A DNA stretch of 64,000 nt from Methanomicrobia archaeon (GCA_015660915.1 JACTTZ010000003.1:4479-68478); one strand, 5' to 3'; positions 1 through 59,488 are shown, numbered from the stretch's first letter. Made by a program: numbers and translations. Notes: generated by a model from the letters alone, not told the origin.

Positions 1-35
1 TTCATCCTCAATACAAAACCTACTGTACACGGGGT

Positions 36-5723: not shown

Positions 5724-5873
5724 TACTCTAGTGACGCGATGCAATAAGATGACGATCATTGGCTGGAATCTCGATGATCGCGTTCCATTTGAGGAGCAAA
5801 AGGAGTTTTTATCCTGTTTTTCATAAACACTTTGGAACAAGCGATTGAACTTGATCCGAGACTTAAGTAGAGC

Positions 5874-6785: not shown

Positions 6786-6959
6786 AGCACCTCTTCTCAA
6801 ACATCGTCTCGAAGTATTCTCTGTTCGATATCTCCTAGCTAGATGCAGTAAAACCGTGCGACTGTTAAGACCCCTCAAACTCACAGATTTATTGTGGCGG
6901 TTCTTAAATCGCCGCAAACCAGTTGCTTAGCTGACTTGCTCAGTCTTCTTTGCTTACGT

Positions 6960-7430: not shown

Positions 7431-7569
7431 ACCGAACCTATGCCCCCGCCGCTATAAAAAAGGCGCGTTGTGCACTTACTTGGGATGCTTGCACTGTTCA
7501 ACGACGAGAGTACCCAGCCAAGTAAAACTCGGCGCACTTGAACACGTAAAAAAAAGAATCGCTTGAATA

Positions 7570-7605
7570 CCCGAGTTTTTCCCGAGTTTTTCCCGAGTTC
7601 TTAGC
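7570..7605. repeat. tandem repeat (cccgagtttttc) x about 3
   Basis: Direct tandem copies are visible in the sequence. Confidence 0.7.
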
Positions 7606-7840
7606 TCCAAAAGTTCCTGTCGTAACCCGTCGGATACCCCCCTCATCCGCTGCTTTCGGGTCGATCGAACGTCTCGTGGCAAGGTCAAATAGATATTAAA
7701 AGCTCGAAATGTTTGCTCGGTTTCGCCATCCAACGCTTCCAAGGCTCGGGATTGTGAGGCTTAGGATTGACACCTACGCGAAGGGCTTTTACATCCATTA
7801 TGTTCTCGAAAATCTCTACAAAGAATTGCCCAAATCCCCG

Positions 7841-7920
7841 TGTTTTTACCGTGTTTTTTCCCTACTTTTACCGACCGTTTGCCGCTGCTTGACCGACACT
7901 TTTTTACCACCTGTTTACCC
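7841..7920. repeat. iteron-like cluster of TTTTACC motifs (at least 4 copies); candidate replication origin of the integrated element
   Basis: Repeated gtgtttttacc / cttttacc / ttttttacc / tgtttaccc within 80 bp in a non-coding stretch near the primase-helicase gene. Confidence 0.35.
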
Positions 7921-8185
7921 TTCCTAAAGACGTTCTGTATGATTCCAAGATACACTTTTCACGTTCGTTCAGCTCAAGGGCAAAGATTCGATCAGAAAAA
8001 GCTTGTGCCCGCTTGACCCTATCGTATCTCGCACTATACCGTTCAAGTTGGCGCAAGGAAAGAGAGAGGCTGTAGGTTTGCCGCAGCTTCTGAAGTGATC
8101 GGGAAGGGCCCATGTCTCGATAAAGGCAAAAAAGCTCATACGCCTTGCTGCGTTCATTGGGTAAACGATCCCATGCTTCGGTCAT
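7904..8185 (-). CDS. hypothetical small protein
   Basis: 93-aa ORF in the island, no motif. Confidence 0.25.
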   Translation of the reverse strand: MTEAWDRLPNERSKAYELFCLYRDMGPSRSLQKLRQTYSLSLSLRQLERYSARYDRVKRAQAFSDRIFALELNEREKCILESYRTSLGRVNRW

Positions 8186-8203
8186 TCAAACGATTCCTTT
8201 ATC

Positions 8204-8449
8204 TCAAGGAGGGCAGCACATAATCGATCTTCTGACGCGGCGAATCTTAATATACCCTGACCGAGCCAATCTGTGAACCCTGTAGTAGAGTTCCTGATAG
8301 GCGGTGTCATAGAACTCTTTGTTGAGATCGGCAAGCGGTACGCACTCTAGATTGTGACCAATAGAAAGCCCCAGAGTGAAACGGGATCTCCTGCAAATCC
8401 GAGCTATGATTTGCTCATCGAGTTCATTGATTTTGTTTTTGTTATTCAC
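8204..8449 (-). CDS. hypothetical small protein (overlaps the primase-helicase start)
   Basis: 81-aa ORF with an 8-nt overlap with the upstream gene, suggesting an operon. Confidence 0.3.
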   Translation of the reverse strand: MNNKNKINELDEQIIARICRRSRFTLGLSIGHNLECVPLADLNKEFYDTAYQELYYRVHRLARSGYIKIRRVRRSIMCCPP

Positions 8450-10580
8450 TTTCGTCCCCTTCTAACAAGAGCGGTTTTCCGCCGGTTAGTTTCAAAAAGA
8501 TCGATGCTGCCGGGCCATTTCCGTTCACGAGCTCGCTGAAGCGGCGCTCGAGGATAATGCGCGACTGTCTATCATCGGCCGAGATGTTATTTTCTTCACA
8601 ATACATCGCGACTGTGAAATTGCAGAGATATTCCGGATCGCGGGGTTCCTTGTAATCGCCATCGGCCAACCATCCGAGCCTTTCGCTTACGTAGCCGTCG
8701 AAGTGTGCCTCCCGGTCGTGGTCGTCTGGTACATGCTTACCACGCGAGCAGTCGGCTATGAGCGTCTGCACTTCCGGATCAGTCTCGGCTAACTTTTTAT
8801 AGAACTGCTCGACGGGGTAGTCGCGCAACCAAGGCTTATCTGCCTTAATGGTCTTGCTCAATTCGGCAGCAAACTCGTTAGTTGTCATGTCGATGGGCCC
8901 AGACCGCGCCTTCTTGAACCCGTTTAGTATCTGCTTGACGTCTTCGACGAGTTCTTTTTCATGTTTTTCACGCTCGCCATTCACCTGAGGGCCTGAAGGC
9001 AATGAACCCATTTTGACTAACTTTTCATGATACCCCTCAGCCGTCATGTAACGAATGTCAAAACCACCTTCATAGCCTTCAGCATTCAGCTCAGCCTTCA
9101 GCGGTGCGGCAACCTCATCGTCATACTCGCCAATATCCCGTAACCGAATCCCTGCCCGCAGATTGCCGCTTTCTTTATGTATGCTCTTAAATCCGAGTTT
9201 CGTAAGATATGAGTAAAAACTCGTCGGCGTCGAGACGTTATGACGCTCCTCGGCGGTCGCGACGTTTCGAAATCGCTCATACAAGGCTTTAGACGTCGAT
9301 TCGGCGCCCGCTTCGACTATGCACTCACTCTCGATAAACGCGGCGAGCGGATTCATAGATTTTTGGTAGTCTTTCCGCGCAGCGTTGACCGAATCCGGCG
9401 GCATAAGGCCGTAGTCTTGCCAATCATAGCACCCCTGCACTAACCACGCAAAAATAGCCTTCTGCGCGTTCTCATCCTCTAAGAGAAATTCTTTGATTTT
9501 CGGGTCGCACTCCTCGAGAGCGATCGGGTTTAAGAACTGCACGATAAAGAACCGATTAAACGACGCATCATCGTCGAAGTCTAATTTCGGCAAGAAATTC
9601 GTCTCGATATAGAATTTTGTGCGCGGATCTATCTTGCGCTGCCTTTTTTCAAACAGGCCTCGGGCACTCTGCGGGTTCCCGCTCGTAACAGCCTTGAGAA
9701 ACGAATCATTGAAGACCATACCCCGAGGCACTTCGCTACACTGCGCGGCACGCACGCCCTCGAGACTAACAAGGTCTGCCCGCGCTCCTCCGGGTTTTTG
9801 TATCGCCTTTGCGAATGTCGATATGTTGACCGGGGCAGCATAATCGCCTAGGGTTTTAAAGATCGCATCTAAAAGCGTTGACTTACGTGCGTTCGCTTCA
9901 CCGTAGAGAACGAACAGGGCCTTGTCTCGATTGATCGCTGTCAATCCTGACCCACAAGCCCGCTGTAAAAACGCGCCTTGCTCGAGTGACAACACTTCGA
10001 TAAGCCGTTCGTACCATTCCGAGCTTACCGTCTCGGGTTCATAGGGCACGGCTGCTATTTTGGTTACCAAGTCGTTGCGATCCGGGTCGCGCAATTCCCG
10101 CGCATTTAAGTCAAGGGTTCCGTTTTGACAGTTGATGAGCCAAGGGTTGGCGTCAAAGTCTTTCGCCATGACTGCGATGCGCGGGTCTGACTGTGCAAGT
10201 TGAATCATCGCGTTTATGCGAAAATTGGAATCACTCTGATACGCCCAGTTCGTCAACCGCTTTTGTGCCGCTTTCCGTTCTTTCGGATCATCCTCATCGA
10301 TGAAACTCGCCTCTGCGTGTATGAGTTTGACCGTTTTTTTGGCCAGTTCTCGAATTTTGAGTGTGACGTCTCGAGGCCATCGCGAGTCATCCCATATGAA
10401 CCACTCACCAATTTCAGCGCAATAACGGATATCATCACCGTACAGAGCAATAAGTCGAAGCGCATTGCCGCCGTCTGTCAAAGGATAACCACACACTACC
10501 CGCACGTCGTTATGTGTGCTGGTTTTGAGGTCAAGCTCAGACAATGTATGCTCACGTATCCCGGGTTGTGATCCGCTCAC
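8442..10580 (-). CDS. plasmid/virus-type replication protein: primase-like N-terminal domain plus D5/SF3-helicase-like NTPase (P4/COG3378 family)
   Basis: N-terminal LTDGGNALRL motif (P4-type primase family). Central Walker-A-like YGEANARKSTLLD with downstream D5_N-like region. 712 aa, typical of MGE primase-helicases. Confidence 0.6.
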   Translation of the reverse strand: MSGSQPGIREHTLSELDLKTSTHNDVRVVCGYPLTDGGNALRLIALYGDDIRYCAEIGEWFIWDDSRWPRDVTLKIRELAKKTVKLIHAEASFIDEDDPKERKAAQKRLTNWAYQSDSNFRINAMIQLAQSDPRIAVMAKDFDANPWLINCQNGTLDLNARELRDPDRNDLVTKIAAVPYEPETVSSEWYERLIEVLSLEQGAFLQRACGSGLTAINRDKALFVLYGEANARKSTLLDAIFKTLGDYAAPVNISTFAKAIQKPGGARADLVSLEGVRAAQCSEVPRGMVFNDSFLKAVTSGNPQSARGLFEKRQRKIDPRTKFYIETNFLPKLDFDDDASFNRFFIVQFLNPIALEECDPKIKEFLLEDENAQKAIFAWLVQGCYDWQDYGLMPPDSVNAARKDYQKSMNPLAAFIESECIVEAGAESTSKALYERFRNVATAEERHNVSTPTSFYSYLTKLGFKSIHKESGNLRAGIRLRDIGEYDDEVAAPLKAELNAEGYEGGFDIRYMTAEGYHEKLVKMGSLPSGPQVNGEREKHEKELVEDVKQILNGFKKARSGPIDMTTNEFAAELSKTIKADKPWLRDYPVEQFYKKLAETDPEVQTLIADCSRGKHVPDDHDREAHFDGYVSERLGWLADGDYKEPRDPEYLCNFTVAMYCEENNISADDRQSRIILERRFSELVNGNGPAASIFLKLTGGKPLLLEGDESE

Positions 10581-11119
10581 GAACGACCTCCGTCGTCGCC
10601 GTCGCCCGAGAGCGAACTCGACTGAGGGTCGTTGCCAAAGCCCAGCAGCTTTCGGAGTTCTTGCATCTCCTTTGCTTTCGTATACTCCACATCAATCGCG
10701 CGCACTTGCGCTATGGTCTCATCAGCGTCTTGGTCACCGAGCGGCTTACGTCGTTGGATCCTGCGGAACAGCGCTAAAAGCAGCCATAACGGTACTTCGT
10801 CAGCGTAGCAATCGTTACGCCACTCAGCCCCAGCGCCGTCTTGATAGTTGATTAGGGCCCGTTCATCGCCGCGTTCAGTCAAATACCAGCTCACATTCTT
10901 ATGCTGCGTGCCAAAGCTCTCGCGCACTCCCTGACGCACGAATATCTGATATTCGTAGAGCAAGTGCTCTGCCGCGTCGTATAGGTCGTTGGACAGCGTG
11001 GCCGTCTCGCCACGTCTCAGCTCTGTCGTGACTTCCTTTAAGCTTCTGTGTGTCTCGCTCTCGTAGTCATCGGCGGGCGTGACATAGCCGCGATTCGGGT
11101 CAAAATATGAACTCGTCAT
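10577..11119 (-). CDS. hypothetical protein
   Basis: ORF translationally coupled (ATGA overlap) to a duplicated 3'-end remnant. Likely ATG start at MTSSYFDP. Confidence 0.35.
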   Translation of the reverse strand: MTSSYFDPNRGYVTPADDYESETHRSLKEVTTELRRGETATLSNDLYDAAEHLLYEYQIFVRQGVRESFGTQHKNVSWYLTERGDERALINYQDGAGAEWRNDCYADEVPLWLLLALFRRIQRRKPLGDQDADETIAQVRAIDVEYTKAKEMQELRKLLGFGNDPQSSSLSGDGDDGGRS

Positions 11120-11169
11120 GCCCTCGCCTCCCACAACCGCTCCATTCTGAATATGAAGCTGTCTAGGTC
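11117..11169. repeat. about 53-bp direct repeat copy 1 (gene-junction cassette: 3' end ...F(I/F)(F/G)RMERLWEAR(A/S)* + ATGA start overlap)
   Basis: About 90% identical to 12004-12055. Confidence 0.8.
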
Positions 11170-11183
11170 GTCGTGAATGTCGG

Positions 11184-12005
11184 TCATGCTCGATGCTCCC
11201 CGTTCGCTATTGCCCATAATTTTTCTCTGTCAACACGTTCAGCCCGAAGTACGCCATAAAAAACAGACGTGTCGTAAAACTCGAAAAGAGCAGCTTCGTA
11301 AAGCTCCCGGAGTGTATAAGGAGGAAGGGCGTCGAGTTCCACCTGCATGAGCTGACCGTAGTCTCGAATGAAGCCGGCTGCACGTGAATCGCCTTTTTTA
11401 CCCGGGTTTACCGGTAAATTATATTCACTTACCTGATCCTCATTGAGCGCAATGCGTTGCACATGGTCAAAGCAGCTGCACCGCTTTTTGAAGTCTCTCA
11501 ATATGTCGACGCCGCTCGGATCGAAATCACCAGCATAAATGAGCACGGCTTGACGGTCATTGTTCGTAACATCCTCGATGATCACATCGACATACGTTTG
11601 CGACGAGTACCCACGAAGCGGGGCGATCGCAACACCGTATGTTTCAAACCACTGCTTCAACTGCGGCACCATGCCGTACTTTTCAACGCCGAGATAGACC
11701 GAGTACTCCTGCCTTTCATCGCGGTTACGGCAGTAGCTCCTAGTGAGCGATTTCAAAGCATCTTGCGGGCTACTGAATCCGCCAAAGCGGTGAATATCGC
11801 GTGTCTGGTCAACTAGCTGCGGAAACTGTCCGTTTCGACGAAGAGCCGCGGTGACCCTACTGAGTCTTTTATACGCGTACTCACTGTTCGGTATCGCGCC
11901 TTCAACGACCAAGCGATAGAACAGTTGTCGGAGAGAGACGCCGGTGTCATAAGAACGCACTATTTCAGCAGCTCGGGTGATGACGCGAGGCCATGAAATG
12001 CTCAT
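11184..12005 (-). CDS. Spo11/Topo VI-A-like 'Mini-A'-type protein (winged helix with Tyr + Toprim)
   Basis: wH motif SLRQLFYRLV (5Y-CAP-like R..Y). Toprim glutamate LGVEKYGMV and DxD motif IYAGDFDPSGVDI. 273 aa, shorter than Topo VI-A. Confidence 0.45.
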   Translation of the reverse strand: MSISWPRVITRAAEIVRSYDTGVSLRQLFYRLVVEGAIPNSEYAYKRLSRVTAALRRNGQFPQLVDQTRDIHRFGGFSSPQDALKSLTRSYCRNRDERQEYSVYLGVEKYGMVPQLKQWFETYGVAIAPLRGYSSQTYVDVIIEDVTNNDRQAVLIYAGDFDPSGVDILRDFKKRCSCFDHVQRIALNEDQVSEYNLPVNPGKKGDSRAAGFIRDYGQLMQVELDALPPYTLRELYEAALFEFYDTSVFYGVLRAERVDREKLWAIANGEHRA

Positions 12006-12226
12006 GACCTCGCCTCCCACAACCGCTCCATTCTGCCTATGAAGCTTTCTAGGTCATAAACGAAGGGTGCTAGTACGAGGTGGTATTCGTCGTCTTCGGT
12101 TTCGACGCGTTCAAGCTCGTAACACAGGTCGCCGTAGAGCTCCTGTGCCCCTATCAAAATCAAAAGAGGGCGCTCTGCATCAAAGCGCTTATCAAAGCGC
12201 AGCCCGTCACTGCTCACCGCGTGCAC
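12002..12226 (-). CDS. hypothetical small protein
   Basis: 74-aa ORF; its stop overlaps the downstream start (ATGA). Its last 16 codons are duplicated at 11120-11170. Confidence 0.35.
   Translation of the reverse strand: MHAVSSDGLRFDKRFDAERPLLILIGAQELYGDLCYELERVETEDDEYHLVLAPFVYDLESFIGRMERLWEARS
12004..12055. repeat. direct repeat copy 2 (see 11117-11169)
   Basis: Covers the 3' end of gene 12002-12226 and the start of 11184-12005. Confidence 0.8.
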
Positions 12227-12714
12227 GAGAAACCTCCGTGTGTCTCTTTTGGAGTCTTAGTCGCCAATGGCACATCGGCTTCCATGTTCTTGCGCTCAGA
12301 ACCACGGCACGTTATTGCGCCTCTACTTCGCCCAGCGAATGGTATACAGCTTCTGTCAAGGTCACGCGGCAATGAGCAAAGGCAGTTAGGTACGCCTTTG
12401 ACCTTCTTTTGGGGATCGGTCAACTTCATGCGTTTGCATGAACGATCCGGATTAAAACTGCGTTCAAAGTCTAAGGGACTCTTTTCAGACTCATCCGGCT
12501 GAAGCCTCATTAGAGGAGCCGGCAAGTTTTTCGAAATTTTGTTTCTTCTAAACATGTTTCTCACTCCAAAAAGCCCAATAAATGGAGAGAGAAACGACCT
12601 TATTTCAAGCGGATATTCTTTATAAAAAGAAACCGCAATTACGTACTACCTAATCTAATCAATTAGGTATGGAGAAACAAGGAATGAGAGGATAGATCGG
12701 GATCTACTCTTACC

Positions 12715-12737
12715 GGCGGAGATCATAACTCTCCGCC
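12715..12737. terminator. perfect 8-bp stem / 7-nt loop hairpin GGCGGAGA-TCATAAC-TCTCCGCC followed by a T-rich tract
   Basis: Inverted repeat seen directly in an intergenic region. Confidence 0.3.
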
Positions 12738-12785
12738 ATCTCTCCATTTTACAGTGCTCTGATTGTTTTTGTTTTGTCTTTCCTC

Positions 12786-13418
12786 CTACGGGTTCGCATT
12801 CTCTGTCGGTCGACGTGTCTTATGCAATGAGAACTCCACAGCCACCGAATCTTCTGCACCTTTCCGAGGCTTTTCCCCACGCTCCACCCGATCAAAAAGT
12901 GCCATAATGTCGCCGTCTTGATCCTTGTAAAGCACCCACACATATGTTAGTGACAAGGGTTCATCGATCGGAAGGCCATCCTCCACCTTCTGAACCGTCG
13001 CAATCCATTTTGAAACGACAGAATTGCAGACATAGCACCAGCTTGATCCAGATTTTAATTGGCTGTACGAAAAACCGATAAGGGGGTCGCTGCTGTGAAT
13101 ACCGTCAGCTTGTACACTAAGACCGAGGCTCTTAGCCACGTCGTCAGCGTGGAGAGAATCCCATACGATTCTGATGAACCTGATGGTAGATTTCCGCACA
13201 GGCCAACGCATAGGATCATGTGTAAGCACCCAAAAAGCAACGATTTCGCCGACCGAATACTCAGGCCAATTGCTTGGCCCGCCTCGACCTTTTCCTTCGC
13301 TCTTGTGGTAACGACGAGGCGCGGTAATGACCCCTTCGTGGGCAAGCTTTCTGATTGTGCTGGAAGCTAAACCAACTCCGTATTTGTGTAAATGAGCCTG
13401 AAGTTCGTCGACTTGCAC
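12786..13418 (-). CDS. hypothetical protein with N-terminal HTH-like segment
   Basis: LASSTIRKLAHEGVI helix-turn-helix-like stretch; the rest is unknown. Confidence 0.3.
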   Translation of the reverse strand: MQVDELQAHLHKYGVGLASSTIRKLAHEGVITAPRRYHKSEGKGRGGPSNWPEYSVGEIVAFWVLTHDPMRWPVRKSTIRFIRIVWDSLHADDVAKSLGLSVQADGIHSSDPLIGFSYSQLKSGSSWCYVCNSVVSKWIATVQKVEDGLPIDEPLSLTYVWVLYKDQDGDIMALFDRVERGEKPRKGAEDSVAVEFSLHKTRRPTENANP

Positions 13419-13546
13419 GCTTCATACTGGGTTTGCTTTTTACTTAAACTTGTTCTCCTATAGAACATGTTCCATACAGAACAAGTTAGTGCTTTCACGG
13501 AAGCCACAGTTTGTTATAAACCCTTGAGTGCTACTTCTTCGACACT

Positions 13547-13836
13547 ATGCAAAAGATCCAAGAATTGTTACCAGATCACAGCACCAGCATCCTAGAGATA
13601 ATCAATGATGCCGCCAATGCTTACAAAGGCGCCATCCCTGATGACCGATGGAAAGAGCCGTACATGTCAGCGAACGAACTGGCCGATGAAATAAGAGCCG
13701 GCGTTCGATTCCACGGGTGGTTTGAAGACGGCTTTTTAGTGGGCATCGCGGGATTCAAAATGTCGGCGGCTTCAGGATCAATAAGCGGGGGTAGCGTGAG
13801 GTTCCCAATGCTTTTTAATCTAGACATCCTCTGTTT
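13547..13836 (+). pseudogene. possible truncated/frame-disrupted acetyltransferase-like ORF
   Basis: The N-terminal 95 aa look protein-like. The tail overlaps the convergent pentapeptide gene and is low-complexity. Confidence 0.2.
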
Positions 13837-15393
13837 TCATCCTTGTCGCTGCTGTTTTTCTCTAAATGCCTGCACAAGTTTGGCTGAGCGTTCCCTGTCG
13901 CCTTTAATTGCTTCTTGCGACACCGCCTTAGCAGGCTCTATTACGTTTTTGTTTATCGATTTGACCAGATCGGCCGTATCTTCATACCAATAGGTATCGA
14001 GAATCATCGTTTCAAGTTTCTTTCGCAAGCCAATCAGCACCATATGCTCTCCCTTCGCTTTTTCTGAGGCGACTCGGATGGGCAGTATAGGCACAGCAGC
14101 GCCCGTATCAGCGATGTGTTGCACCTCGATAGGCACCATCTCAGGGTCAGTAAAGTCAGCGATAACGAACTGCGCCATACGTGCAAGAGTAGATACTGTT
14201 TCGATAAACGTTTGGCTCTCCGGTTTTTCAAAGTCGAATACTACAGGCACATAGTCATGATGACGAAGTTCGTCTCGGACTGCGTCGAGCGTCGGCTTTT
14301 GCTCATCAGTGAAGCGGCCGAGGAGAAGCACGACTTTTGAGGTCATAATATCAATAACATTTCGCAGCTTTTCGTATTTCGTTAGCAAATAGATGAACTG
14401 CGCGACCTCAAGGTCGTCAACGGTGATCACGGGCTCTCGTTCGTATATATTGCTGATGTTCAAGTTTGACTGATCTTTTGGCTTACCTTGAAGGTTCCAC
14501 ACCGAGCTACCGTACACGGCACATCCAGCAAAAATGGCATCCGCGATGGTCGTTTCTACAAAAATTGCCCTCGTGAGATTGGCGTCTGAAAGGTCGGTAC
14601 CTGTCAGATCCGCATTTGAAAGATCGGCAGAATAGAGGGTAGCGTGAGAGAGGTTAGCGTGGGAGAGGACGGCTTTGTAGAGGTGGGCTTCTCGCAAGGT
14701 GGCGCCAGAGAGGTTGGCGTCGGTGAGCTTGGCCTTATAGAGGTGGGCGCGGGTGAGGTCGGCTAACGAGAGGTCGGCGCCCCTCAGATCCGCATTTGAA
14801 AGATATGCGTCGACAAGAATAGCGCCAGAGAGGTTAGCGCCGGAGAGGTGGGCAAAGGAGAGGTGGGCCTCGCTGAGATTAGGCCTCACCTCAGAGTACT
14901 TATCACGCCAACTGTTCCACTCGTCAACGCCTTGTTTCAGAATTTCAAGGTGCGATTCATTTGCCGTAGAAGATCTCACTGCGAGCGTCAGGCCGGCGTC
15001 GGTGAGGTCTGCACCCGTCAGATCCGCATTTGTAATGTTAGCGTTAGAGAGGTCGGCGCCGCTGAGGTCGGCGTTAGAGAGGTCGGCGCCAGAGAGCTCG
15101 GCGTTAGAGAGGTCGGCGCCAGAGAGGTCGGCGCCAGAGAGGTTAGCGTCGGTGAGCTCGGCGTGGGAGAGGTTAGCGCCAGAGAGGTTAGCGCCAGAGA
15201 GGTCGGCGTCGGTGAGGTCGGCGTAGAAGAGGTCGGCTCCGATGAGGTTGGCTTCGTAGAGGTCGGCTTCTGGGAGGTGGGCGCCGCTAAGATCGGGCCT
15301 CACGTCATGGTACTCTTCACGCCAACTGTTCCAGACTTTAAAGCCTTGCTTTAGGATTTCGAGATGTGATTCATTGACCATCGAAGATCTCAC
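13837..15393 (-). CDS. pentapeptide-repeat protein with duplicated N-terminal module and a C-terminal non-repeat alpha/beta domain
   Basis: Long runs of A(D/N)LSGA(N/D)L pentapeptides. Two copies of the module ESHLEILKQG..WNSWR..Y.(D/E)VRP(D/N)LS.AHL. The C-terminal 190 aa are non-repetitive (KVVLLLGRFTDEQ...VPVVFDFEKPE...FVIADFTDPE). Confidence 0.7.
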   Translation of the reverse strand: MRSSMVNESHLEILKQGFKVWNSWREEYHDVRPDLSGAHLPEADLYEANLIGADLFYADLTDADLSGANLSGANLSHAELTDANLSGADLSGADLSNAELSGADLSNADLSGADLSNANITNADLTGADLTDAGLTLAVRSSTANESHLEILKQGVDEWNSWRDKYSEVRPNLSEAHLSFAHLSGANLSGAILVDAYLSNADLRGADLSLADLTRAHLYKAKLTDANLSGATLREAHLYKAVLSHANLSHATLYSADLSNADLTGTDLSDANLTRAIFVETTIADAIFAGCAVYGSSVWNLQGKPKDQSNLNISNIYEREPVITVDDLEVAQFIYLLTKYEKLRNVIDIMTSKVVLLLGRFTDEQKPTLDAVRDELRHHDYVPVVFDFEKPESQTFIETVSTLARMAQFVIADFTDPEMVPIEVQHIADTGAAVPILPIRVASEKAKGEHMVLIGLRKKLETMILDTYWYEDTADLVKSINKNVIEPAKAVSQEAIKGDRERSAKLVQAFREKQQRQG

Positions 15394-15581: not shown

Positions 15582-15720
15582 TTATCTGGAAATTATGAGC
15601 TTAACGTTATTCCAATATTGCATATACACATCATATGCGTGCTCAGGCAGCGGATGCTTATAGTGCTTCCAATCGATACCGCTGACGCCGTGCGTCGTAC
15701 ACGCTCTGACCGACAGAATC
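15582..15720 (-). pseudogene. tyrosine integrase C-terminal remnant (...THGVSGIDWKHYKHPLPEHAYDVYMQYWNNVKL*), no start codon
   Basis: Strong protein/DNA similarity to the C-terminus of the intact integrase 20218-21045. Confidence 0.5.
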
Positions 15721-16030
15721 GTAATGCCGCCCAATAATTTCTGCTCCTTCTTATGTGCGCGCTGTGAGCTAAGGCAAACTTGTCTGCCAAGCTACCTGAA
15801 AATGTGAACCCAGAGATTGATCGCCATAGGTACCATCGTCACTATGATAACCAAGATGACGAACAGTGGCGTTATTTTTGCTTTTCCACGCCAGACAAGA
15901 TAAAAAACAATAGCATCGGTGACTGCGACGATGATGGTAGCGATAATAAGAGCTCTCACAAAGAGGTCGACCATAGTTTTACTGCTCACGCTTCAGTGTT
16001 CATTTGATTCAAAAAACTGTTAGCGACAGT

Positions 16031-16264
16031 TTAGTTGTCTAGGCGGGTATTGTGCCAATATTTTATAAACCCGTAATAAACGTGCTCAGGCAAAGGATGC
16101 TTGTCATGCTTCCAATCTATACCGCTCACGCCATGCGTCATTATGTAAGCACGATTTGACTGATCCCAGCCTATTGCGTCACCGCCCTGCTCGCAAAACT
16201 TGCGCAGATCGCCAAGCACGAAATGCCCCTTAAACTGTGACATCGGAATCTTCTGCCGTTTCAT
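16031..16264 (-). pseudogene. tyrosine integrase C-terminal remnant (box II + catalytic Tyr region)
   Basis: GDLRKFCEQ...WDQSN..Y.(L/M)THGVSGIDWKH.KHPLPEHVY matches the intact integrase C-terminus. Confidence 0.6.
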
Positions 16265-16448
16265 CTATATCCCCAAAAAGCCATGTCGGAAAACAGCTTC
16301 ATCGTCTTTTTTTCTTCGATCGACTCCCCGCCAAAGATGGCGTATTGGAAAGGATTATTCGTTAAGTTCAACAAGAGTCGGTTGCGAACCTTCATGCTGA
16401 ACTGGCAAACCACCAACGACAAGGATCTTTGCCTTAGACGACGCATCT

Positions 16449-16781
16449 GTGAATATGGAACTACCTGCACTAACGCAGTTTATCGCTAACATTAGCGTGG
16501 CGGTCGACGCCGGCTACGATACAAACGTTGCCGAGATACGCGCCCACATCGAACGCGGCGATATCATATCGTTTTTAACAGATATGTGCTGCGCCGATCC
16601 CGTTCTAATGGCAAAGCTCGTGCGTGAGCACTGGGCAACAGAGACTGAGAATGAGCTTAATGAGCTACTCGGTGATGAGTCAGGAGACGAAAAACTTGCG
16701 GGGAGCTTCAATCGAAGCGGCTTATGCTACCTCATCGCGCTTACGACGCGACTGATTGAGCGGCGCTCTTTCAGGGCTTAA
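16449..16781 (+). CDS. hypothetical protein
   Basis: 110-aa ORF, no motif. Confidence 0.25.
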   Translation: MNMELPALTQFIANISVAVDAGYDTNVAEIRAHIERGDIISFLTDMCCADPVLMAKLVREHWATETENELNELLGDESGDEKLAGSFNRSGLCYLIALTTRLIERRSFRA

Positions 16782-17134
16782 ACGCACTTAGGCAGTTCGT
16801 TTTATGAGCGCCATGGATTTACGGTGGTTTCGCGCGAGGAGACGAATGAGCTTCTGCAACAGCACTAGAACATTCTAAGAAGGCAAATCGAGACGTCGGT
16901 TGTGCTTAAGCTAATACTTGCAGATTCCCGCTGAACTGCACCAGTCTTGGGCATCAAAAATGGTCTTCTGGCGGCCAAAGCATGGCCCTAAACTCGCGGT
17001 TGAAAAACATTGCAAAGCTGCATACTGGAGCTTAAACTTTGAAGTGTACATCTTTCCAATACCGTATGTACGCATCATACACATTCTCGACCGAAAGAGT
17101 TTAGTGTTGGTTTTATACTTTTTTTTTCCAAATA

Positions 17135-18406
17135 ATGACGATTATCATAGGGATCAATTTCGGTGCGTATGTGTTATTAGCTGCCGATACACGAGCTACT
17201 CTCCTCAACTTGAGCAACCGCCCATACCGCCGTCGCGATGATCACAAAAAGATTAACAAGACTAGCTCTGGCATAGTCGCAGGTCGAGGTATTGATGAAC
17301 TCCTTGAACTTGTCAATTCCAAGTTTGATGAAATTCATGAGATCATTAGTACTGATGAAGTTCGAAGAATCATAAACAATGAAAGACAACATTTCCGCGA
17401 ACTTTACCCAGAGAACAAACAAGGCATTGAAAACACTGCTTGGATTTTTAGCTATTTAACGTTTAGCGAAGGAACTTTCGACAAAGGCACACCGACTCTT
17501 CGACTAGGCGTCAATGGTCGTGGCATAGACATCATTGGACGTCGCCACATAGTCGACAACTGCCCTTGCGTAATTCCGCCACCCGAGGCAACTAAACAAG
17601 ATGCTAGTTTTATCTTTGACTTTCTGAATGAATCAATAAAGGGCTTCGATCAGTTTAAGACGATAGGCGACAGCATCGAATATCATTGGTCATTAATTGC
17701 CCGTTTAATTCGAACAATTCAGCCTAAGTTTGATAGCATAAGTCGTCATTGTCAGATAGGTGTGCATACACTAGACGGTCATACCGGTATATCTTCAATT
17801 CTAAAAGACACCGATACTAGCGCTTCAATAACTCTGAAGCCACCACCTTCACCGTCGAGCGTCATATCTACCGTGGGACGATTAACTACTCTGACGAACG
17901 AAGCATATGGGTTTAGAATAACATATCCTGTAACTTGGAAAATTGAAGAGGCGCTTTCCGCGTTTGATCCCGTCAGAGTCCGCATCTTCTTACCTACAGA
18001 TGATTACGAGGATAACGTTAGCGTTGCTATGTTCAGTCTCGAGCCAAATACATCGCTTGATGGCGTTATCAAATACAACTTAAATGATATTCGAAACCTT
18101 AACGACATCCGCCTTGTATCAGAAAGAAACTCCACTATCGCTAATCATCCTTCCTACACAGCGGTGTTTGAAGGGATTGTTCCTGTTCAGCTAAGCGAAA
18201 CGTCTCCCGTCGCCCAAGATATAATACATAAAGCGAAACAAATATGCGCGGTGAATAATGACGCGCTTTACGTCGTCACCTACAAAACGGCGCGAGACAA
18301 GTACGACCAGTATTTAGCGCCAGCGCAACGAATCATGGATTCTTTTGTTTTCGTCAGACCACACGATATATTCAAACCGAACAAAAAATGGTTAATTCGA
18401 TACTGA
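17135..18406 (+). CDS. Ntn-hydrolase (proteasome beta / HslV-like) domain protein fused to a C-terminal domain of unknown function
   Basis: N-terminus MTIIIGINFGAYVLLAADTRAT mirrors the proteasome-beta TTIVGIK..GVVLAADTRAT, with Thr2 positioned as a potential N-terminal nucleophile. The C-terminal 200 aa are a beta-rich domain, possibly PsbP/Mog1-like. Confidence 0.4.
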   Translation: MTIIIGINFGAYVLLAADTRATLLNLSNRPYRRRDDHKKINKTSSGIVAGRGIDELLELVNSKFDEIHEIISTDEVRRIINNERQHFRELYPENKQGIENTAWIFSYLTFSEGTFDKGTPTLRLGVNGRGIDIIGRRHIVDNCPCVIPPPEATKQDASFIFDFLNESIKGFDQFKTIGDSIEYHWSLIARLIRTIQPKFDSISRHCQIGVHTLDGHTGISSILKDTDTSASITLKPPPSPSSVISTVGRLTTLTNEAYGFRITYPVTWKIEEALSAFDPVRVRIFLPTDDYEDNVSVAMFSLEPNTSLDGVIKYNLNDIRNLNDIRLVSERNSTIANHPSYTAVFEGIVPVQLSETSPVAQDIIHKAKQICAVNNDALYVVTYKTARDKYDQYLAPAQRIMDSFVFVRPHDIFKPNKKWLIRY

Positions 18407-18609
18407 GAAATGTTCTTCTTAGATCGTATATAGATGCCGAACCTGTGCTCAGGCAGACAGATGTTTACAGCGCGGTAAGGGTTCCAATATGGAGCGTTTC
18501 GCGCTTCTTTTTTCTTGGTTGCACGCCTACGCTATATCCGCACGTGCTTTCATCTAAGTTATCGGTCAGGGCACGGATCGTCTCACGCTAACCGCACATC
18601 CGCCCAATA

Positions 18610-18861
18610 CTAGATATACGTATCATAGACGTTCTCCGGCAATGGGTGTTTGTAGTGCTTCCAATCGATGCCGCTCACCCCGTGCGTCAGGATGTCAGCG
18701 CGATTTGGTTGGATCCACTCGATAATACCAATACTGTTCACGAAACTACACAGATCGTTGGGTAGCGCTTCTGTCAGCGGTAGGATCTGGCAGGGCAGTG
18801 CCGCAGTTTGCGTGCGTACGAGGCACATCGAATGCCACCATCCCCACATTTTTTTCATCAA
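18610..18861 (-). pseudogene. tyrosine integrase C-terminal remnant
   Basis: ...ILTHGVSGIDWKHYKHPLPENVYDTYI* matches the intact integrase. The upstream part is unrelated. Confidence 0.55.
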
Positions 18862-19078
18862 GTCTCAAAAGAAGCCCCTGAACGAAGGAAATTCAAAAAA
18901 GAGATGATGATCGGGGAGTAACTAACAGGCTAGTCTAAACGTAATAACTAGATTTCAAGGTGCCACCTTAATCCAGCCGTGCCCTTATCGCGCGGCTAAA
19001 ATGCTCATTCAAGCGCTTTGATGGGGGGAAACCCTATATCGCGGAACCTTTCATAACCGTGTAAAGGAGGTAAGTAGA

Positions 19079-19489
19079 ATGGTCGCACTACCTGAAAAGG
19101 TAATAGAGAACTTCAACACGTGGAAGGGGCGCGCCCGCGCCGTGTTCGCGACGGTAAGCGATGCGGGCGTACCCAACGTGGTTCCTGTTGGGGCGCTTAT
19201 GGTGAAAGATCCAGAGACGATCCTCATCGGCGACAACTTCTTCAAGAAAACAGCCGAAAACGTGAGGCGACCGAACTGCCATGTGGCCGTAACGTCGTGG
19301 ATCGGCAGGGAGGGCTATCAGGTGAAGGGCACTGGTAACTACGTGACTGACGGCCCCGACTACGAGATGATGAAGCAGTTTATAAAGGCGATCAACCCGA
19401 ACCTGCCAGCTAAGGGCTGCCTCGTGATGAAGGTCACTGAGGTGTTTGACGTCGCGCCCGGGCCGAGCGCGGGAGAGAAGATCGTGTAG
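19079..19489 (+). CDS. pyridoxamine 5'-phosphate oxidase-like FMN/F420-binding split-barrel protein
   Basis: Size about 135 aa; pattern NVVPVG..ILIGDNFF..T..N typical of PNPOx-related small flavin-binding proteins. Confidence 0.55.
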   Translation: MVALPEKVIENFNTWKGRARAVFATVSDAGVPNVVPVGALMVKDPETILIGDNFFKKTAENVRRPNCHVAVTSWIGREGYQVKGTGNYVTDGPDYEMMKQFIKAINPNLPAKGCLVMKVTEVFDVAPGPSAGEKIV

Positions 19490-19908
19490 ATCGGTGTCGA
19501 AAAAATAAGCACTCGTGCAGGCTTTTATGATCCCACAAGTATAGCGCATACGCGTCATATGCATCGCAGCGGATGCTTATGACGTCACCACTCTACGCGT
19601 GAAACTCCGTGGGGCAAGACATCATTGCTTTCGCTGCAATCTGAAATGCTTGGTGATATAACCTCTTATTTTGTTTATAACCCCGACGCTGAAGTCTGTT
19701 ACACTTCCCGGCCGAGGCTTAACAGTCGGTTCACCTTTCGCTACCTGCTCACCGGTTTACACTCTCTTGTAGTGGAAAGCGACAGGCTCGTTACCTTTTA
19801 AATGGACTGGCAAAGCGAGTGCATTTGTCTCAAGATATCAGTTGAACCGAAAGACAAAAAATAACTGAACTCAAAGCGACGAACAAACTAGATCCAGTCT
19901 GCGAATGG

Positions 19909-20196
19909 GTGGGAGGTGAAACATTGCAAAGCGACGAAGAACTGATGAGGTTAGCTCGAAAACGCGCTGAAGACAGGGTTGGATTCTATATACACCTCAC
20001 CATTTACGTCGTGGTGAACCTTTTCCTCGTAGCCGTATGGTGGTTTACAGGCGCGGGGTTCCCGTGGTTTGTCTTTGTGATCGGTTTTTGGGCGATCGGA
20101 TTAGTCGCCCACGGCGCGAGCGTCTTTATGGGGGGTGGAATGACGGATAGGATCACTGAACGCGAATATCAGAAACTCAAACGAGATAAGGAATAG
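19909..20196 (+). CDS. 2TM-domain small membrane protein
   Basis: Two hydrophobic helices after a basic N-terminus (RVGFYIHLTIYVVVNLFLVAVWW...); resembles 2TM family proteins. Confidence 0.4.
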   Translation: MGGETLQSDEELMRLARKRAEDRVGFYIHLTIYVVVNLFLVAVWWFTGAGFPWFVFVIGFWAIGLVAHGASVFMGGGMTDRITEREYQKLKRDKE

Positions 20197-20217
20197 CGAG
20201 CGACCTTTTTAACTGGG

Positions 20218-21045
20218 CTAAGCGTCGAATCTCACATCTTTCCAGTACTTCATGTATACGTCATACACGTTCTCAGGCAGCGGGTGCTTGTAAAATCGCC
20301 AATCGACACCTGAAACGCCGTGAGTGAGTACATAGTTCTTATTCGATTGATCCCACAGCAGAATATCGGATTGTTGCTCACAGAATTTTCTTAGATCTCC
20401 GTTTACTATACGGGCCCCGCTGTTCAACAATCGAACGCCAGTGTGCTTGAGCCACTCCTGAAAGGATAGTTGCTGAAAAACAAATTCATCATCAGGCCGA
20501 TCTTCCAACGCGGGAATCATCGCCTCTACAACTTGCGGATGCAGGGGGCAATAATGCTGCATTCGGATTTTGTCTTGCCACGGAAGCACGTCGACAGCAG
20601 GCTTCTTCGTTTTCACAGCTTCCCTGAACTGGCCGACGGTTAACCGTGCTATTGTTGCCAAAGGCCGCTGCCCAGTGAACGCACCAAACAACGTCAGTGC
20701 TTTGTAATTAAGGCGGTGATAGTCATCTATCCGCCCGACACTATAGGAGAGTTCAATCGCCTTCAGCACATTCTCAACGTCTTCTTTCGTAATGATTCTC
20801 GAAGTGACATGCTTACGCGTTTTGAGCGTTTTAGGCATTTCCAAAAAGAGTTCAAATGCCTGAAAGCGCATGTCGAACGTCGTCTTCGCGAGATACTTCA
20901 AAAGACCTTTGGTGAAATAGAGCACTTTGCGTTTTGAATAGACGCAAGTGTATTTTGTCAGAGTGAAATTGCGCACTGCGTCTATCGTTTCCTTGCTAAC
21001 AGTGCCGTGCGTATGCTTCCAGACGATTTCAGCCGCCTTATTCAT
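20218..21045 (-). CDS. int: tyrosine recombinase / phage-type integrase (intact copy)
   Basis: Catalytic signature in order: R (TGQRPLAT), H..LRKF (box II), HGVSGVDWRFY (His/Trp + Tyr nucleophile). Three co-oriented C-terminal remnants lie nearby. Confidence 0.7.
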   Translation of the reverse strand: MNKAAEIVWKHTHGTVSKETIDAVRNFTLTKYTCVYSKRKVLYFTKGLLKYLAKTTFDMRFQAFELFLEMPKTLKTRKHVTSRIITKEDVENVLKAIELSYSVGRIDDYHRLNYKALTLFGAFTGQRPLATIARLTVGQFREAVKTKKPAVDVLPWQDKIRMQHYCPLHPQVVEAMIPALEDRPDDEFVFQQLSFQEWLKHTGVRLLNSGARIVNGDLRKFCEQQSDILLWDQSNKNYVLTHGVSGVDWRFYKHPLPENVYDVYMKYWKDVRFDA

Positions 21046-21271
21046 CCAGTTGCTGCTCTTCCGGTCAAGGCCTGCTTTACGCCATTTTTTATAACCAATA
21101 AGCTGGTTTCGTGAGAACGTTAATTGAAGTGAGCTAATGTCTTGCCCGTTTACTGATTCAAGTGGAACTCTAATCCGTGCTTTTTCACTCGTTAAAATGG
21201 TTTGAAATAAGCTTTGAGCATCAGAAATGTCTTGCTTTGTCGAAAGAGCACCAAAAAGAGGAGGAGAGCTC

Positions 21272-21350
21272 GACAGGGCTCCATGATAGGCCGCTACACT
21301 ACCCGGGCTTGCGCAAAAATGGTGGTTGCACAGAGCACAACTTACTAGGC
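21272..21350. repeat. about 80-bp imperfect direct repeat copy A (gacagggctc..tgataggccgctac...gcttgcgcaa...tgcacagagc)
   Basis: About 80% identical to 22414-22490; the pair flanks the 21390-22169 gene. Confidence 0.7.
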
Positions 21351-21389
21351 AGGGGATGAAAGATAAAGGTTTCTGCGGAGATTCGGAGC

Positions 21390-22169
21390 GTGCTTCTGCC
21401 TCTGACGTGTTTATCCAATCTGTTCTATGAGTTCTTCCAAGCTCAATATCTCACCTCAACCTTCGAGATGTTATGGAAGCAGGCTGTTCCGGCGAAAGAA
21501 CAAATACAAGAGCTTTGGAGCGGGGACCTCAGCAGGCATAAAGGGCGCGCAAGCGACGATAATACAAATGCAACTGCTCCACTTTTAAGCAGAGGTCTTC
21601 AACCGTTTTTTGCGGTACGTGACTCAAATAAGTCACGCGGCCTTATAAACTCGAAGGTCCTTTTTTTAGCAATGGTCTATAAGACAATCCTTGAAAACGT
21701 GAAGGACATTATAGCTGCCAGTTTAACGGTAGTGGAATCTGCAAAGAACGAAATCATCTGGCTCCTACCACCTCAGATGTTGGTCTTCGCCGGTCAATTC
21801 GGCGTGACTAGCAAATCAAAGGCGCTAATAGAAAAAGGCGGACGAGTAAGGGGCATCACTCAGATTTCAGAAACCGACCTTCGTGTCGTGCGCGAATTGT
21901 TGGACATCGGCGAAGATGTGCGCCACGTCGATCAGTATCGAGGAGAGTTCATGGTGGTTGTAGACAAAACAGAATGCATCAGTTCAATACCTCAGCAGAG
22001 TGTCAATATCGGGGATCTCTCGCTTGATGATCGCGTAGTAGGGTTCTGGACTGATGAGCCAGCCTATGCCGAATACCTTATCACCACCTTTGAAGCTGCG
22101 TGGAAAGAAGCAGTCGATGCAAAAAAGCGCATAGAAGAGCTATTGCAGCAAGATCTGCCGCAGAGTTGA
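21390..22169 (+). CDS. TrmB C-terminal (sugar-binding-like) domain protein lacking an N-terminal HTH; mosaic
   Basis: The C-terminal 170 aa are similar to the C-domains of the TrmB paralogs at 39996, 40840 and 43329. The N-terminal segment TFEMLWKQAVPAKEQIQEL resembles the C-terminal tail of those paralogs. Confidence 0.45.
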   Translation: MLLPLTCLSNLFYEFFQAQYLTSTFEMLWKQAVPAKEQIQELWSGDLSRHKGRASDDNTNATAPLLSRGLQPFFAVRDSNKSRGLINSKVLFLAMVYKTILENVKDIIAASLTVVESAKNEIIWLLPPQMLVFAGQFGVTSKSKALIEKGGRVRGITQISETDLRVVRELLDIGEDVRHVDQYRGEFMVVVDKTECISSIPQQSVNIGDLSLDDRVVGFWTDEPAYAEYLITTFEAAWKEAVDAKKRIEELLQQDLPQS

Positions 22170-22413
22170 TTGTCGACCCTCAGGCCGGCATGACTAGCAA
22201 AGGCTGTTTTTGATTGCGAAGAATCACACATATCATCTCTTTTGAAACTCCGCAGAAGAATGTCAATTGGAACGTCCTGAGGCTTTGCTGCTAGTGTGGA
22301 GCAGGCAAAAATCCCAATTGTGCGTTTACAGCGTAAGCGTATTACTAAGCGGCTGCCCGGCAACACAAAATAGCTGTTAATTCTGCGAAACTGTTTCGAA
22401 AATAGGAGTCCCT

Positions 22414-22490
22414 GACAGGGCTCACTGATAGGCCGCTACTTCCCAAGCTTGCGCAATCGCGGGGGTGCACACAGCCCAGTTGCTAGTCAA
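22414..22490. repeat. direct repeat copy B
   Basis: See 21272-21350. Confidence 0.7.
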
Positions 22491-22557: not shown

Positions 22558-23595
22558 TTAGCACACGCGTGGAACGGGATCACCAAGCGGTGCATCAACA
22601 AAGCGAGTTCCGCCGATATGCGTCGTCATCAGGACTTTTTGGCCTTCCTTCACCTCGCCGATTATCGCCGCGTTCTTCCCGTACTTGGTTTTCTTGACTG
22701 CGTGGAGCACTGCTTCGGCGCTCTCCGCCTCCACACCGATGATCGCCTTGCCCTCGTTTGCCACTTCGAGCACATCGATGCCGAGCATTTCGGCAGCTGC
22801 CCTTATCGACGGATTGATCGGCAGCGACTCCTCTTGAATGAGCACCTCGACGCCGCTCTTGTGCGCCATGTCGTTGAGCGCGCTGGCGACGCCACCTCGC
22901 GTGGGGTCCTTCATAGCCGTTATTGCTGTTGAGTCAGCCGCGTCGAGAGCAGCCTTTACGGTGTGCCAGATCGGTGCGACGTCTGAGCGCAGTTCAGTTC
23001 GAAAGTGAAAGTCCTCTCGCTTGGCAAGCACAGCGATTCCGTGATCGCCGATCGTGCCGGTGATGATGAGCTTGTTCCCAGGCTTCAGACCGCAATCCCG
23101 CACCGGCCTTTCAACAAAGCCTATCCCGGCAGTGTTAATGATAATCTTATCGAGCGCGCCTTTTTCCACGACCTTCGTGTCGCCGGTCACGATCGCCGTG
23201 TCAACCTCCTGCGTTGCCTCATCCATCGATGCGACTATCTTGCGCAAATCGCTGATCGCAAATCCATCCTCCATGACGATCGCACTCGTCAGCGCGAGCG
23301 GCGCTGCACCCATCATCGCAAGGTCGTTGACCGTTCCTGAAACCGAGAGCCGCCCAATATCCCCTCCGGGAAAGAAGATCGGCTTGACGACGTGCGTGTC
23401 CGTAGTGAGCACAAGGAAGCCCCCTTGAGCCAGCGGAATAGCAGCCCCGTCATCTAACGATTCTAAGCCAATACCGCCGGCGTTCTTGTTTTTGATCTTC
23501 GTCAGGACGTCGGCGATCAAGGCGTTCATCATCTCTCCGCCCGCGCCGTGGAGCAGGCTGACGTTCTTTTCGACTCTCGCTCGTTCCGATTGCAT
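22558..23595 (-). CDS. hypE: [NiFe]-hydrogenase maturation protein HypE
   Basis: AIR-synthase-related fold; N-terminal LHGAGG and overall HypE pattern. Confidence 0.8.
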   Translation of the reverse strand: MQSERARVEKNVSLLHGAGGEMMNALIADVLTKIKNKNAGGIGLESLDDGAAIPLAQGGFLVLTTDTHVVKPIFFPGGDIGRLSVSGTVNDLAMMGAAPLALTSAIVMEDGFAISDLRKIVASMDEATQEVDTAIVTGDTKVVEKGALDKIIINTAGIGFVERPVRDCGLKPGNKLIITGTIGDHGIAVLAKREDFHFRTELRSDVAPIWHTVKAALDAADSTAITAMKDPTRGGVASALNDMAHKSGVEVLIQEESLPINPSIRAAAEMLGIDVLEVANEGKAIIGVEAESAEAVLHAVKKTKYGKNAAIIGEVKEGQKVLMTTHIGGTRFVDAPLGDPVPRVC

Positions 23596-59468: not shown

Positions 59469-59488
59469 CACGCATAGTATGTTTAGAC

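Follow-up and report, generated by a model that had tools for sequence, protein, structure and literature searches.

Suicidal tyrosine integrases of the SSV and pTN3 types carry their attachment site (att) within the integrase open reading frame (ORF), and in the integrated element the C-terminal and N-terminal halves of the gene, Int(C) and Int(N), lie at opposite ends, beside the target tRNA. The pTN3-like integrases of the hyperthermophilic Thermococcales use the tRNA's 5' half, a feature unique to their group, and chimeric Int(N)/Int(C) genes are known (PMC8371274). IntpTN3 additionally has a homology-driven recombination activity that resembles homologous recombination (PMC8371274; Badel et al. 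2020, PMC7253208). Here we describe an island of this architecture in DNA of a Methanomicrobia archaeon (GCA_015660915.1, JACTTZ010000003.1:4479-68478); the whole 64,000-nucleotide (nt) stretch that was analyzed is called the window below. Beside its integrase gene the island holds an array of orphaned integrase 3' ends, or tails, separated by small cargo genes. The original prediction, made from the sequence of the window, took positions 15582-21045 for integrase remnants left by serial integration and decay, followed by one intact paralogous integrase. Our comparisons indicate that the orphans are foreign integrase C-termini, and that the last codons of the gene may be a hot spot at which tails and cargo are stacked and swapped.

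The gene that had been called intact proved to be an Int(C) half only. Its frame stays open as far as the att site, and no ATG, GTG or TTG codon lies upstream of position 21045; homologues share an extra N-terminal stretch of about 45 amino acids (aa), which the window encodes in frame and without a start codon. The true att consists of 22 nt and the 5' 40 nt of tRNA-Asp and lies inside the int ORF, on its 5' side (window 21269-21330). Contigs L041 and L042, which extend the window leftward, place an intact tRNA-Asp about 3.8 kb left of window base 1. L041 8657-8718, which overlaps this intact tRNA-Asp (8679-8752), matches window 21269-21330 at 62 of 62 nt, and the att repeat extends to 143 nt at 98.6% identity. 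A 157-aa Int(N) ORF (L041 8300-8718) reads into the tRNA-Asp, and joining L041 8300-8718 in silico with window 21268-20218 yields one uninterrupted ORF of 489 aa with an ATG; the same virtual join is open in two related loci, L002 (473 aa) and L003 (452 aa). Because joining both ends restores one ORF, the roughly 25 kb beside hypE form a single att-bounded island that sits in tRNA-Asp and was inserted by a split, pTN3-like tyrosine integrase. Int(C) occupies the left (attL) end of the island, Int(N) is fused to tRNA-Asp at the right end, and window 15.6-21.3 kb is the integrase-proximal variable region (Table 1). With att on the 5' side, the tails represent the end of int that is distal to att, and not the att-proximal end as the original prediction had it.

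Judged by its architecture, the element is a member-like variant of the suicidal SSV/pTN3-type integrase islands. It resembles the SSV-type and pTN3-like elements in the position of att and of the two half-genes beside the target tRNA, in its chimeric Int(N)/Int(C) genes and in its tandem elements, and the pTN3-like elements in particular in using a tRNA 5' half as target, with a restored tRNA behind Int(N). It differs in its host, a mesophilic peat-bog lineage of Halobacteriota where theirs are hyperthermophiles, and in sequence. For membership of the described families, a representative of SSV, pTN3 or pT26-2 should be matched at about 30% identity across 60% of the length (PMC8371274). The bog family has no detectable similarity to described families in Pfam, NCBIfam, PDB or phage records. 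The integrase had no match in Pfam, NCBIfam, PDB sequences or 50,697 phage and virus records, a weak match to a PHROG integrase (3e-6) being its sole hit in a sequence library, and searches of Pfam, NCBIfam and PDB sequences with Int(N) found no match. More than 700 homologues of the 275-aa protein exist, all in peat or bog metagenome genomes of uncultured Halobacteriota ("Bog-38"). An AlphaFold2 model of the integrase is of moderate quality (predicted local distance difference test 73.6); with Foldseek, its top 30 matches in the PDB are all tyrosine recombinases, namely Cre, XerH, XerA and phage integrases (probability at least 0.9, best E 2e-3). Residues R127, R219 (GDLRKF), H242 (THGVSG), W249 and Y252 (YKHPLPE) are invariant, and R219, H242 and Y252 are probably the active-site Arg, His and Tyr, as assigned by motif spacing only.

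The tRNA pieces define two subfamilies. In the one that includes the window gene, int shares its strand with the piece, which comes from tRNA-Asp(GTC) and is its 5' half; in the second the piece is the 3' half of tRNA-His(GTG), on the strand opposite to int. The pieces lie about 220-270 nt upstream of the integrase genes and are 97.5-100% conserved where the integrases are only 60-80% identical. The same 40-48 nt of tRNA-Asp are found upstream of the integrases in L002, L003, L012 and L018-L021 (97.5-100%), and both L002 and L003 show the order 5' half, int, 5 kb of cargo and intact tRNA-Asp.

We searched the whole window by tblastn with the 275-aa ORF (20218-21045, minus strand) as the query. 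Beyond the query gene, five C-terminal integrase fragments were found, all on the minus strand; the original prediction had listed three to four, and the additional ones, orphans D and E, are weak matches. The fragments indeed carry the His/Trp/Tyr end of a tyrosine recombinase, and none of them belongs to a longer ORF in another frame. All five also match at the DNA level (blastn, 73-82% identity, E 1e-8 to 4e-3), and four of them fall into one DNA repeat family (D3/D4). The gaps between fragments measure 342-1501 nt, and three of the five orphans (B, D and E) bear stops, frameshifts or truncation. A gradient of divergence, proposed earlier as the sign of successive integration, is absent: blastn identities to the resident gene run 76, 76, 80, 82 and 73% in outward order. 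Moreover, orphans B and C are 85% and 88.5% identical to the integrase of L019 and 73-76% identical to the resident gene. These two are thus nearer to the L019 integrase than to the resident one. The comparisons identify the five orphan 3' ends as foreign integrase C-termini, and not as local duplicates or decayed copies of the resident gene. Neither ARAGORN nor Rfam (at both thresholds) found a tRNA or other known RNA at 15-23 kb.

The array is not an artefact of assembly, because independent assemblies reproduce it. The 20.8 kb around the gene are 99.8-100% identical in four independent spanning assemblies. Another four contigs are shorter and overlap the interval only in part; they match the window at 99.5-99.99%. 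Contigs of the same species with an identical integrase protein are all collinear with the window and thus give no information on insertions or deletions. In four of eight independent same-species assemblies the contig ends at window 19600-20012, within or just past the first cargo unit (2TM), which fits a 2TM unit that is repeated among co-occurring genomes, or strain heterogeneity directly behind the integrase.

Comparison with related loci showed a physical link between every orphan and its downstream cargo, and assigned the part before codon 252 to the cargo upstream. Forty-two pairs of blocks share DNA downstream of the tail, most of them without shared DNA upstream. One case is the unit with the gene for a 2TM-domain protein, which lies behind the resident Int(C) in the window and behind an orphan in L001 and L023. 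Counting nt from the first base of codon 252, ten loci have near-identical sequence from +24 on, stop codon and cargo included, while upstream of the junction (-10 to +24) stand at least five integrase types (L023, L001, L043, L045, L047, L051, L053) or unrelated DNA. In metagenome contigs the 2TM unit is attached to integrases only 46-53% identical to that of the window: the integrases of L045/L046 and L043/L044 diverge to this degree, yet from about codon 252-260 on, together with the cargo, they are 86-91% identical, and on these alignments they are clearly chimeric genes. A module with a 65-aa transmembrane (TM) protein behaves similarly. It is 85-89% identical to L001 12528-12831, L022 8341-8653 and L023 2728-3038, and 76% identical to L014, with a different upstream partner each time. 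The tail of orphan E and 300 nt downstream match, at 78% identity, the corresponding tail and following DNA of an intact Int(C) gene in L023. The module of the PNPOx-like gene, 91% identical to L037 6877-7784, provides the converse: identity between window and L037 is about 93% over the PNPOx cargo and the stub encoding aa 228-251 and falls to about 66% from codon 252 on, so that orphan B moves with the PNPOx module in its part upstream of codon 252 but not in its tail. The 2TM and PNPOx junctions thus indicate that a tail belongs with its downstream cargo and a stub with its upstream cargo. Pfam agreed with the 2TM and PNPOx cargo of the original prediction; the Ntn-hydrolase also proposed there found no confirmation, and the 423-aa cargo protein has a weak PsbP-like C-terminal domain.

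We next extended the analysis to 29 related loci from GTDB representative genomes of the "Bog-38" Halobacteriota. These loci contain 33 Int(C) genes, 63 orphan C-termini and 3 orphan N-termini. Orphans are co-oriented with the nearest integrase in 54 of 59 cases, and the median spacing from tail to tail is 1.67 kb. In L001, from a different species, five orphans are likewise arrayed at the orthologous hypE locus, and arrays upstream of the integrase also occur (L022 and L023). To map the module junctions we placed them by alignment, having dropped an ungapped change-point scan that was over-sensitive to insertions and deletions. Junctions cluster around codon 252, that of the probable catalytic Tyr, within about -12 to +24 nt. 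By a profile-based estimate of boundaries, 27 orphans start at -12 to +5 and 24 are spread over -84 to -13; counts drop after +5, though fragments starting at +18 are still detectable. In the 35 orphans with non-integrase DNA upstream, conservation runs from about -10 to the stop codon with codon periodicity kept, and third positions of CAT CCG CTG CCT GAG are somewhat more conserved in short orphans than in intact genes. Tails differ mainly in their last 8 or so residues. The original prediction had offered a re-used site overlapping the int 3' end as an alternative, and this was nearer the mark; that the site would be the element's att does not hold.

The asymmetry of 63 to 3, the clustering of junctions, the novel junctions of int with non-int DNA and the shuffling of modules together argue for a special role of the tail. 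Our preferred account, to which we give about an even chance on these sequence comparisons, is that the 3' end of int (the last 25 or so codons) is a hot spot that stacks and swaps modules of tail plus cargo. The hot spot would be the final 80 nt or so of Int(C) from the probable Tyr252 codon, with the consensus ...TGG NNN NNN TAY AAR CAY CCG CTG CCT GAG CAC GTN TAY GAY GTN TAY ATG.... Tail-bearing DNA, either a whole related element or a circle popped from another array, would recombine there; the resident gene would gain a new tail and new cargo, and the old tail and cargo would be shifted one step outward. Legitimate exchange between whole elements, of att with att or of tail with tail, would, by this reasoning, swap cargo or 5' parts and leave no orphans by itself. 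Orphans would have to arise either by insertion of a whole tail-bearing circle, the backbone genes of which are later deleted, or by insertion of small integrase-less circles of tail, cargo and stub. Long integrase remnants would be purged by repeat-mediated deletion, and so short tails would persist; arrays could thereby grow, shrink and trade modules among the integrase loci of one genome and between genomes. The catalyst could be the integrase itself, through a second, non-att site or an IntpTN3-like homology-driven activity, or equally host homologous recombination on the one stretch of DNA that is common to diverged family members. The hot spot is the longest run of conserved DNA among diverged members, so either host recombination or an IntpTN3-like activity would concentrate crossovers there.

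Several observations weigh against this account. Junction positions are spread over about 35 nt, which fits a homology-guided crossover better than a fixed overlap of 6-8 bp. A scan of 97 tail copies revealed none of the dyad symmetry of a tyrosine-recombinase core (at most 4.3 of 9 positions complementary). We also considered the tail as a pseudo-att and rejected the idea, as local alignments of the tRNA-Asp and tRNA-His att sites with the tail were no better than shuffles (p 0.5-0.97). Among the sequences compared, neither circular cassettes nor tail-bounded filled/empty polymorphism was observed. The right ends of the 65-aa TM and 2TM modules vary among arrays, and in L045, as in L049 (a strain 97% identical to the window), divergence sets in about 200 nt ahead of codon 252 of orphan B. 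Five elements (L003, L012, L019, L020 and L059) are free of orphans. The position of the catalytic Tyr itself is less than firm: residues 226-251 of the model have low confidence, and the assignment of Tyr252 rests on motif spacing and the model. Finally, some 8-10 short orphans share a left arm with a hairpin (GGAGCC-N7-GGCTCC) that resembles the tRNA-Asp anticodon stem, so not all are independent events.

A module of two or three such hairpins, GGAGCC-(TAATACA/CTATTGA)-GGCTCCGAC, whose stem is that of the tRNA-Asp anticodon arm, occurs at L002 16078, L014 5210-5400, L027 5822, L030 15996 and other sites, and nowhere in the window. It either immediately precedes short orphan tails or follows tRNA-Asp directly in inverted orientation, and could be a miniature inverted-repeat transposable element, an arm-type site or a small RNA.

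The same data bear on plain tandem accretion at the tRNA-Asp att with random decay, in which the tail would have no special property. Tandem integration of this kind is real at the locus. Two attL copies are present, and with the intact gene left of the window they make a tRNA-Asp ladder, in which two 5' halves, one degenerate (22404-22456) and one perfect (21269-21330), accompany a complete gene. In L049 the remnant of the older element E0 is absent: the missing 1.07 kb (window 21340-22413) contain the TrmB-like ORF, and the junction lies in the att repeat, which makes this a natural polymorphism of presence and absence. Tandem junctions of Int(N), att and Int(C) are common, and long ORFs of the P0010 kind represent such junctions at this hypE locus and not free circles. 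Accretion would likewise account for the int-like sequence upstream of codon 252 that starts variably, at aa 154-249, in about half of the orphans, and for array breakpoints away from tails. The serial, att-mediated integration is, however, recorded by att copies and not by integrase tails; of the serial integration originally predicted, repeated acquisition at one locus stands. Random deletion predicts 5' and 3' remnants in equal number, contrary to the counts above, and uniform end points, whereas almost none fall before aa 150 and the peak lies at -12 to +5. Accretion further predicts a gradient of divergence, which is lacking, and att copies beside the remnants, none of which exist inside the array, and it leaves unexplained why identical units of tail and cargo stand on five different integrase 5' parts, including intact genes. 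We therefore consider accretion and decay improbable as the source of the array.

Ladders of this kind have been described for tandem islands in the Islander/TIGER work, where an incoming island brings a copy of its target's 3' portion, by which the gene is made whole again while the previous fragment is displaced, and repetition yields a ladder of co-oriented fragments (PMC4383910). The tRNA-Asp ladder, with two 5' halves and an intact gene, is a true counterpart. The ladder in question differs in that its rungs are integrase 3' ends and its "target" is a gene of the mobile element, and its units carry no integrase and fall far short of islands in size. Elements with tyrosine recombinases reportedly pile up in tandem at tRNA genes in Prochlorococcus too, where these tycheposons are said to form variable islands and to include cargo-only satellites bounded by repeated partial target sequences. 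In tycheposons a partial tRNA forms the repeated boundary; in the present array that place is taken by the 3' end of the recombinase gene itself.

An integron offers a different comparison. In a cassette system of that kind the core site would be the integrase's own catalytic-Tyr codon; integrase-less circles of tail, cargo and a short int stub would excise by recombination between tails, insert at the 3' end of Int(C) and bring a replacement C-terminus. Integrons have been reported in Archaea (bioRxiv 10.1101/2022.02.06.479319), and there are points of likeness: behind an integrase stands a co-oriented array whose units are small, mostly of a single gene and without mobility genes, each bounded by a repeated, recombination-associated sequence, and the units are shared among arrays in different order. 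The newest unit apparently lies next to the integrase; L001 has an extra unit with a 113-aa protein between int and the 2TM unit, with a displaced tail of the 2TM type behind it. Novel junctions of int with non-int DNA at -12 to +5 could not be created by homologous recombination, and the raised third-position conservation in short orphans is also consistent with a site. There are also differences. The integrase is not IntI (it has no Phage_integrase or IntI family match) and is split and tRNA-targeting; the boundary is a codon-periodic fragment of integrase coding sequence and not a folded attC hairpin; neither attI nor Pc could be recognized, and cargo lies on either strand; the platform sits inside a mobile, tRNA-targeting element, and catalysis at the repeat is only putative. 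Thus the array is not an integron, though it behaves partly like one. Against a cassette system count also the spread of the junctions, the lack of dyad symmetry, the variable right-hand ends of the units, the absence of observed circles and the arrays upstream of integrases in L022 and L023; in addition, the integrated Int(C) is incomplete, so that "repair" by a cassette would bring no immediate function. On the alignments we hold such a system to be possible but doubtful.

Orphans could in principle also serve as silent C-terminal cassettes in the manner of pilS or vls, donating variants of the recombinase's C-terminal helix by gene conversion. The layout, with promoter-less 3' fragments arrayed beside one longer copy, the concentration of tail variation in the last residues and the existence of chimeric integrases are what one would expect of such donors. 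Yet pilS/vls-type arrays are made of closely packed intact donors, whereas these orphans are separated by unrelated, conserved cargo genes, their tails co-vary with that cargo, three of them carry the lesions noted above, and the expressed gene is itself split. We consider this explanation very improbable.

Table 1. Features of the island and its flank in the window, in map order (minus strand read from hypE, 22558-23595)
Feature	Position	Strand	Evidence and remarks
Degenerate older tRNA-Asp 5'-half att copy (about 83%), left end of decayed element E0	22404-22456	-	Repeat families D8/D17
TrmB-like ORF, 259 aa; between the two Asp att copies, sole cargo left of E0	21390-22169	+	Pfam Regulator_TrmB 2e-3, below cut-off
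attL of the island	21269-21411	-	Remnant of Int(N) coding sequence (about 80 nt) + 22 nt + tRNA-Asp(GTC) positions 1-40
Int(C) half of split SSV/pTN3-type tyrosine integrase	20218-21268	-	Annotated ORF 20218-21045
Cargo 1, 2TM-domain protein	19909-20196	+	Pfam 2TM PF13239, 6e-20; one module with current Int(C) tail
Orphan D	19567-19641	-	aa 232-256, 60%, E 8e-4; internal stop; frameshifted tail down to about 19515
Cargo 2, PNPOx-like protein	19079-19489	+	Pfam PNPOx_N 6e-12
Orphan B	18589-18726	-	tblastn, aa 228-273, 65%, E 3e-18; stop inside tail
Cargo 3, 423-aa protein with weak PsbP-like C-terminal domain	17135-18406	+	Pfam PsbP_2 4e-5, below cut-off
Orphan E, minimal tail	17041-17088	-	aa 258-273, 75%, E 1e-3; DNA upstream unrelated to int
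Cargo 4, 110-aa ORF without family match	16449-16781	+	ORF call, Pfam
Orphan A	16037-16312	-	tblastn, aa 183-274, 48% identity, E 4e-25
Cargo 5, 65-aa membrane ORF	15792-15989	-	One module with orphan A tail; module in five arrays
Orphan C	15597-15695	-	tblastn, aa 241-273, 70%, E 2e-13; body of D5-primase element comes next
Body of nested plasmid-like element	2441-15393	-	Pfam
Pentapeptide-repeat protein, 518 aa	13837-15393	-	Long 15-nt periodic DNA repeat, families D1/D2
D5_N primase-helicase	8442-10580	-	Pfam
EVE-domain protein	6960-7430	-	Pfam
Mrr	5874-6917	-	Pfam
Eco57I/MmeI-like methylase	2913-5723	+	Pfam
tRNA-His-targeting Int(N)-type ORF	2057-2440	-	3' end encoded by tRNA-His-derived att
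tRNA-His(GTG) 3'-half att copy	2061-2116	+	93-100% to sequence upstream of subfamily-2 integrases, short L026 and L020 matches left out
5' remnant of tRNA-His-type Int(C)	1659-1921	-	aa 1-65 (tblastn 1659-1852, E 2e-8) + N-extension; frameshifted
Cap4-nuclease/nSTAND NTPase defence gene, 455-aa part of 1317 aa	36-1403	+	Runs off window start; between two tRNA-His att copies

Outward of the array the island contains nested remnants. The 5' remnant of a tRNA-His-type Int(C) at 1659-1921 (minus strand), co-oriented with the orphans, had been missing from the earlier list of fragments. We rejected the idea that this N-terminal fragment and orphan C are the two halves of one split gene bounding the 14-kb D5-primase element; the fragment has its own tRNA-His att and is flanked by two tRNA-His half copies, and is part of a further nested remnant. 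Many loci have a homologue of the adjoining Int(N)-type ORF directly upstream of int and its tRNA piece, and in P0033 the ORF is fused in frame with the integrase. Beyond the Cap4/nSTAND gene the map continues with the second tRNA-His att copy, left of the window at L041 8151-8205, and then with the Asp-type Int(N) and tRNA-Asp. Together, window 1-7430 and L041 3533-7486 hold a cluster of defence genes (methylase, Mrr, EVE, Cap4/nSTAND). An episomal or viral origin found no support, as no relatives were detected in IMG/VR or phage records. Within the nested element, a possible truncated GNAT-like ORF lies at 13547-13993, on the strand opposite the pentapeptide gene, and window 13531-13734 is 83% identical to DNA inside the L023 array. 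Relatives of the TrmB-like ORF occur within the integrase arrays of L003, L022, L024, L026 and L038, and four TrmB-like paralogues (29-56% identity) cluster at window 39172-44165 (plus strand). Elsewhere in the window, two tRNA genes on the minus strand (52388-52471 and 59372-59469; 84 and 98 nt) were given four-base "anticodons" by ARAGORN and score about 55 bits in Rfam; both probably contain introns, as is typical of archaea.

Arrays of orphan tails with cargo are described neither in the archaeal recombinase review nor in the texts found by search, primary papers lying outside that coverage. The locus reveals a family of split integrases that are orphans in sequence, including a pTN3-like subgroup that targets tRNA 5' halves, in abundant mesophilic peat archaea, outside the characterized hyperthermophiles. 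For annotation, calls of an "intact integrase" here refer to half-genes, and orphan tails mark the variable cargo regions of these metagenome-assembled genomes. The lineage-wide excess of C-terminal over N-terminal remnants is unexplained by ordinary decay and points to a specific junction at the catalytic end of the gene. Units of tail plus cargo appear to act like cassettes that move among arrays and genomes, carrying membrane proteins, flavin enzymes and, further out, defence genes. On sequence comparison it is conceivable, if doubtful, that these peat-bog archaea possess an integron-like capture platform, with its site in the catalytic-Tyr codon region and with each cassette carrying a spare C-terminus (the Tyr and the last helix), displaced C-termini being the history of capture; it would be unrelated to IntI/attC and would reside inside a suicidal split-integrase element. 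If so, it would give such elements a route to keep or regain a working integrase, and, if the integrase catalyzes capture, it would represent a second, independent invention of an integron-like device.

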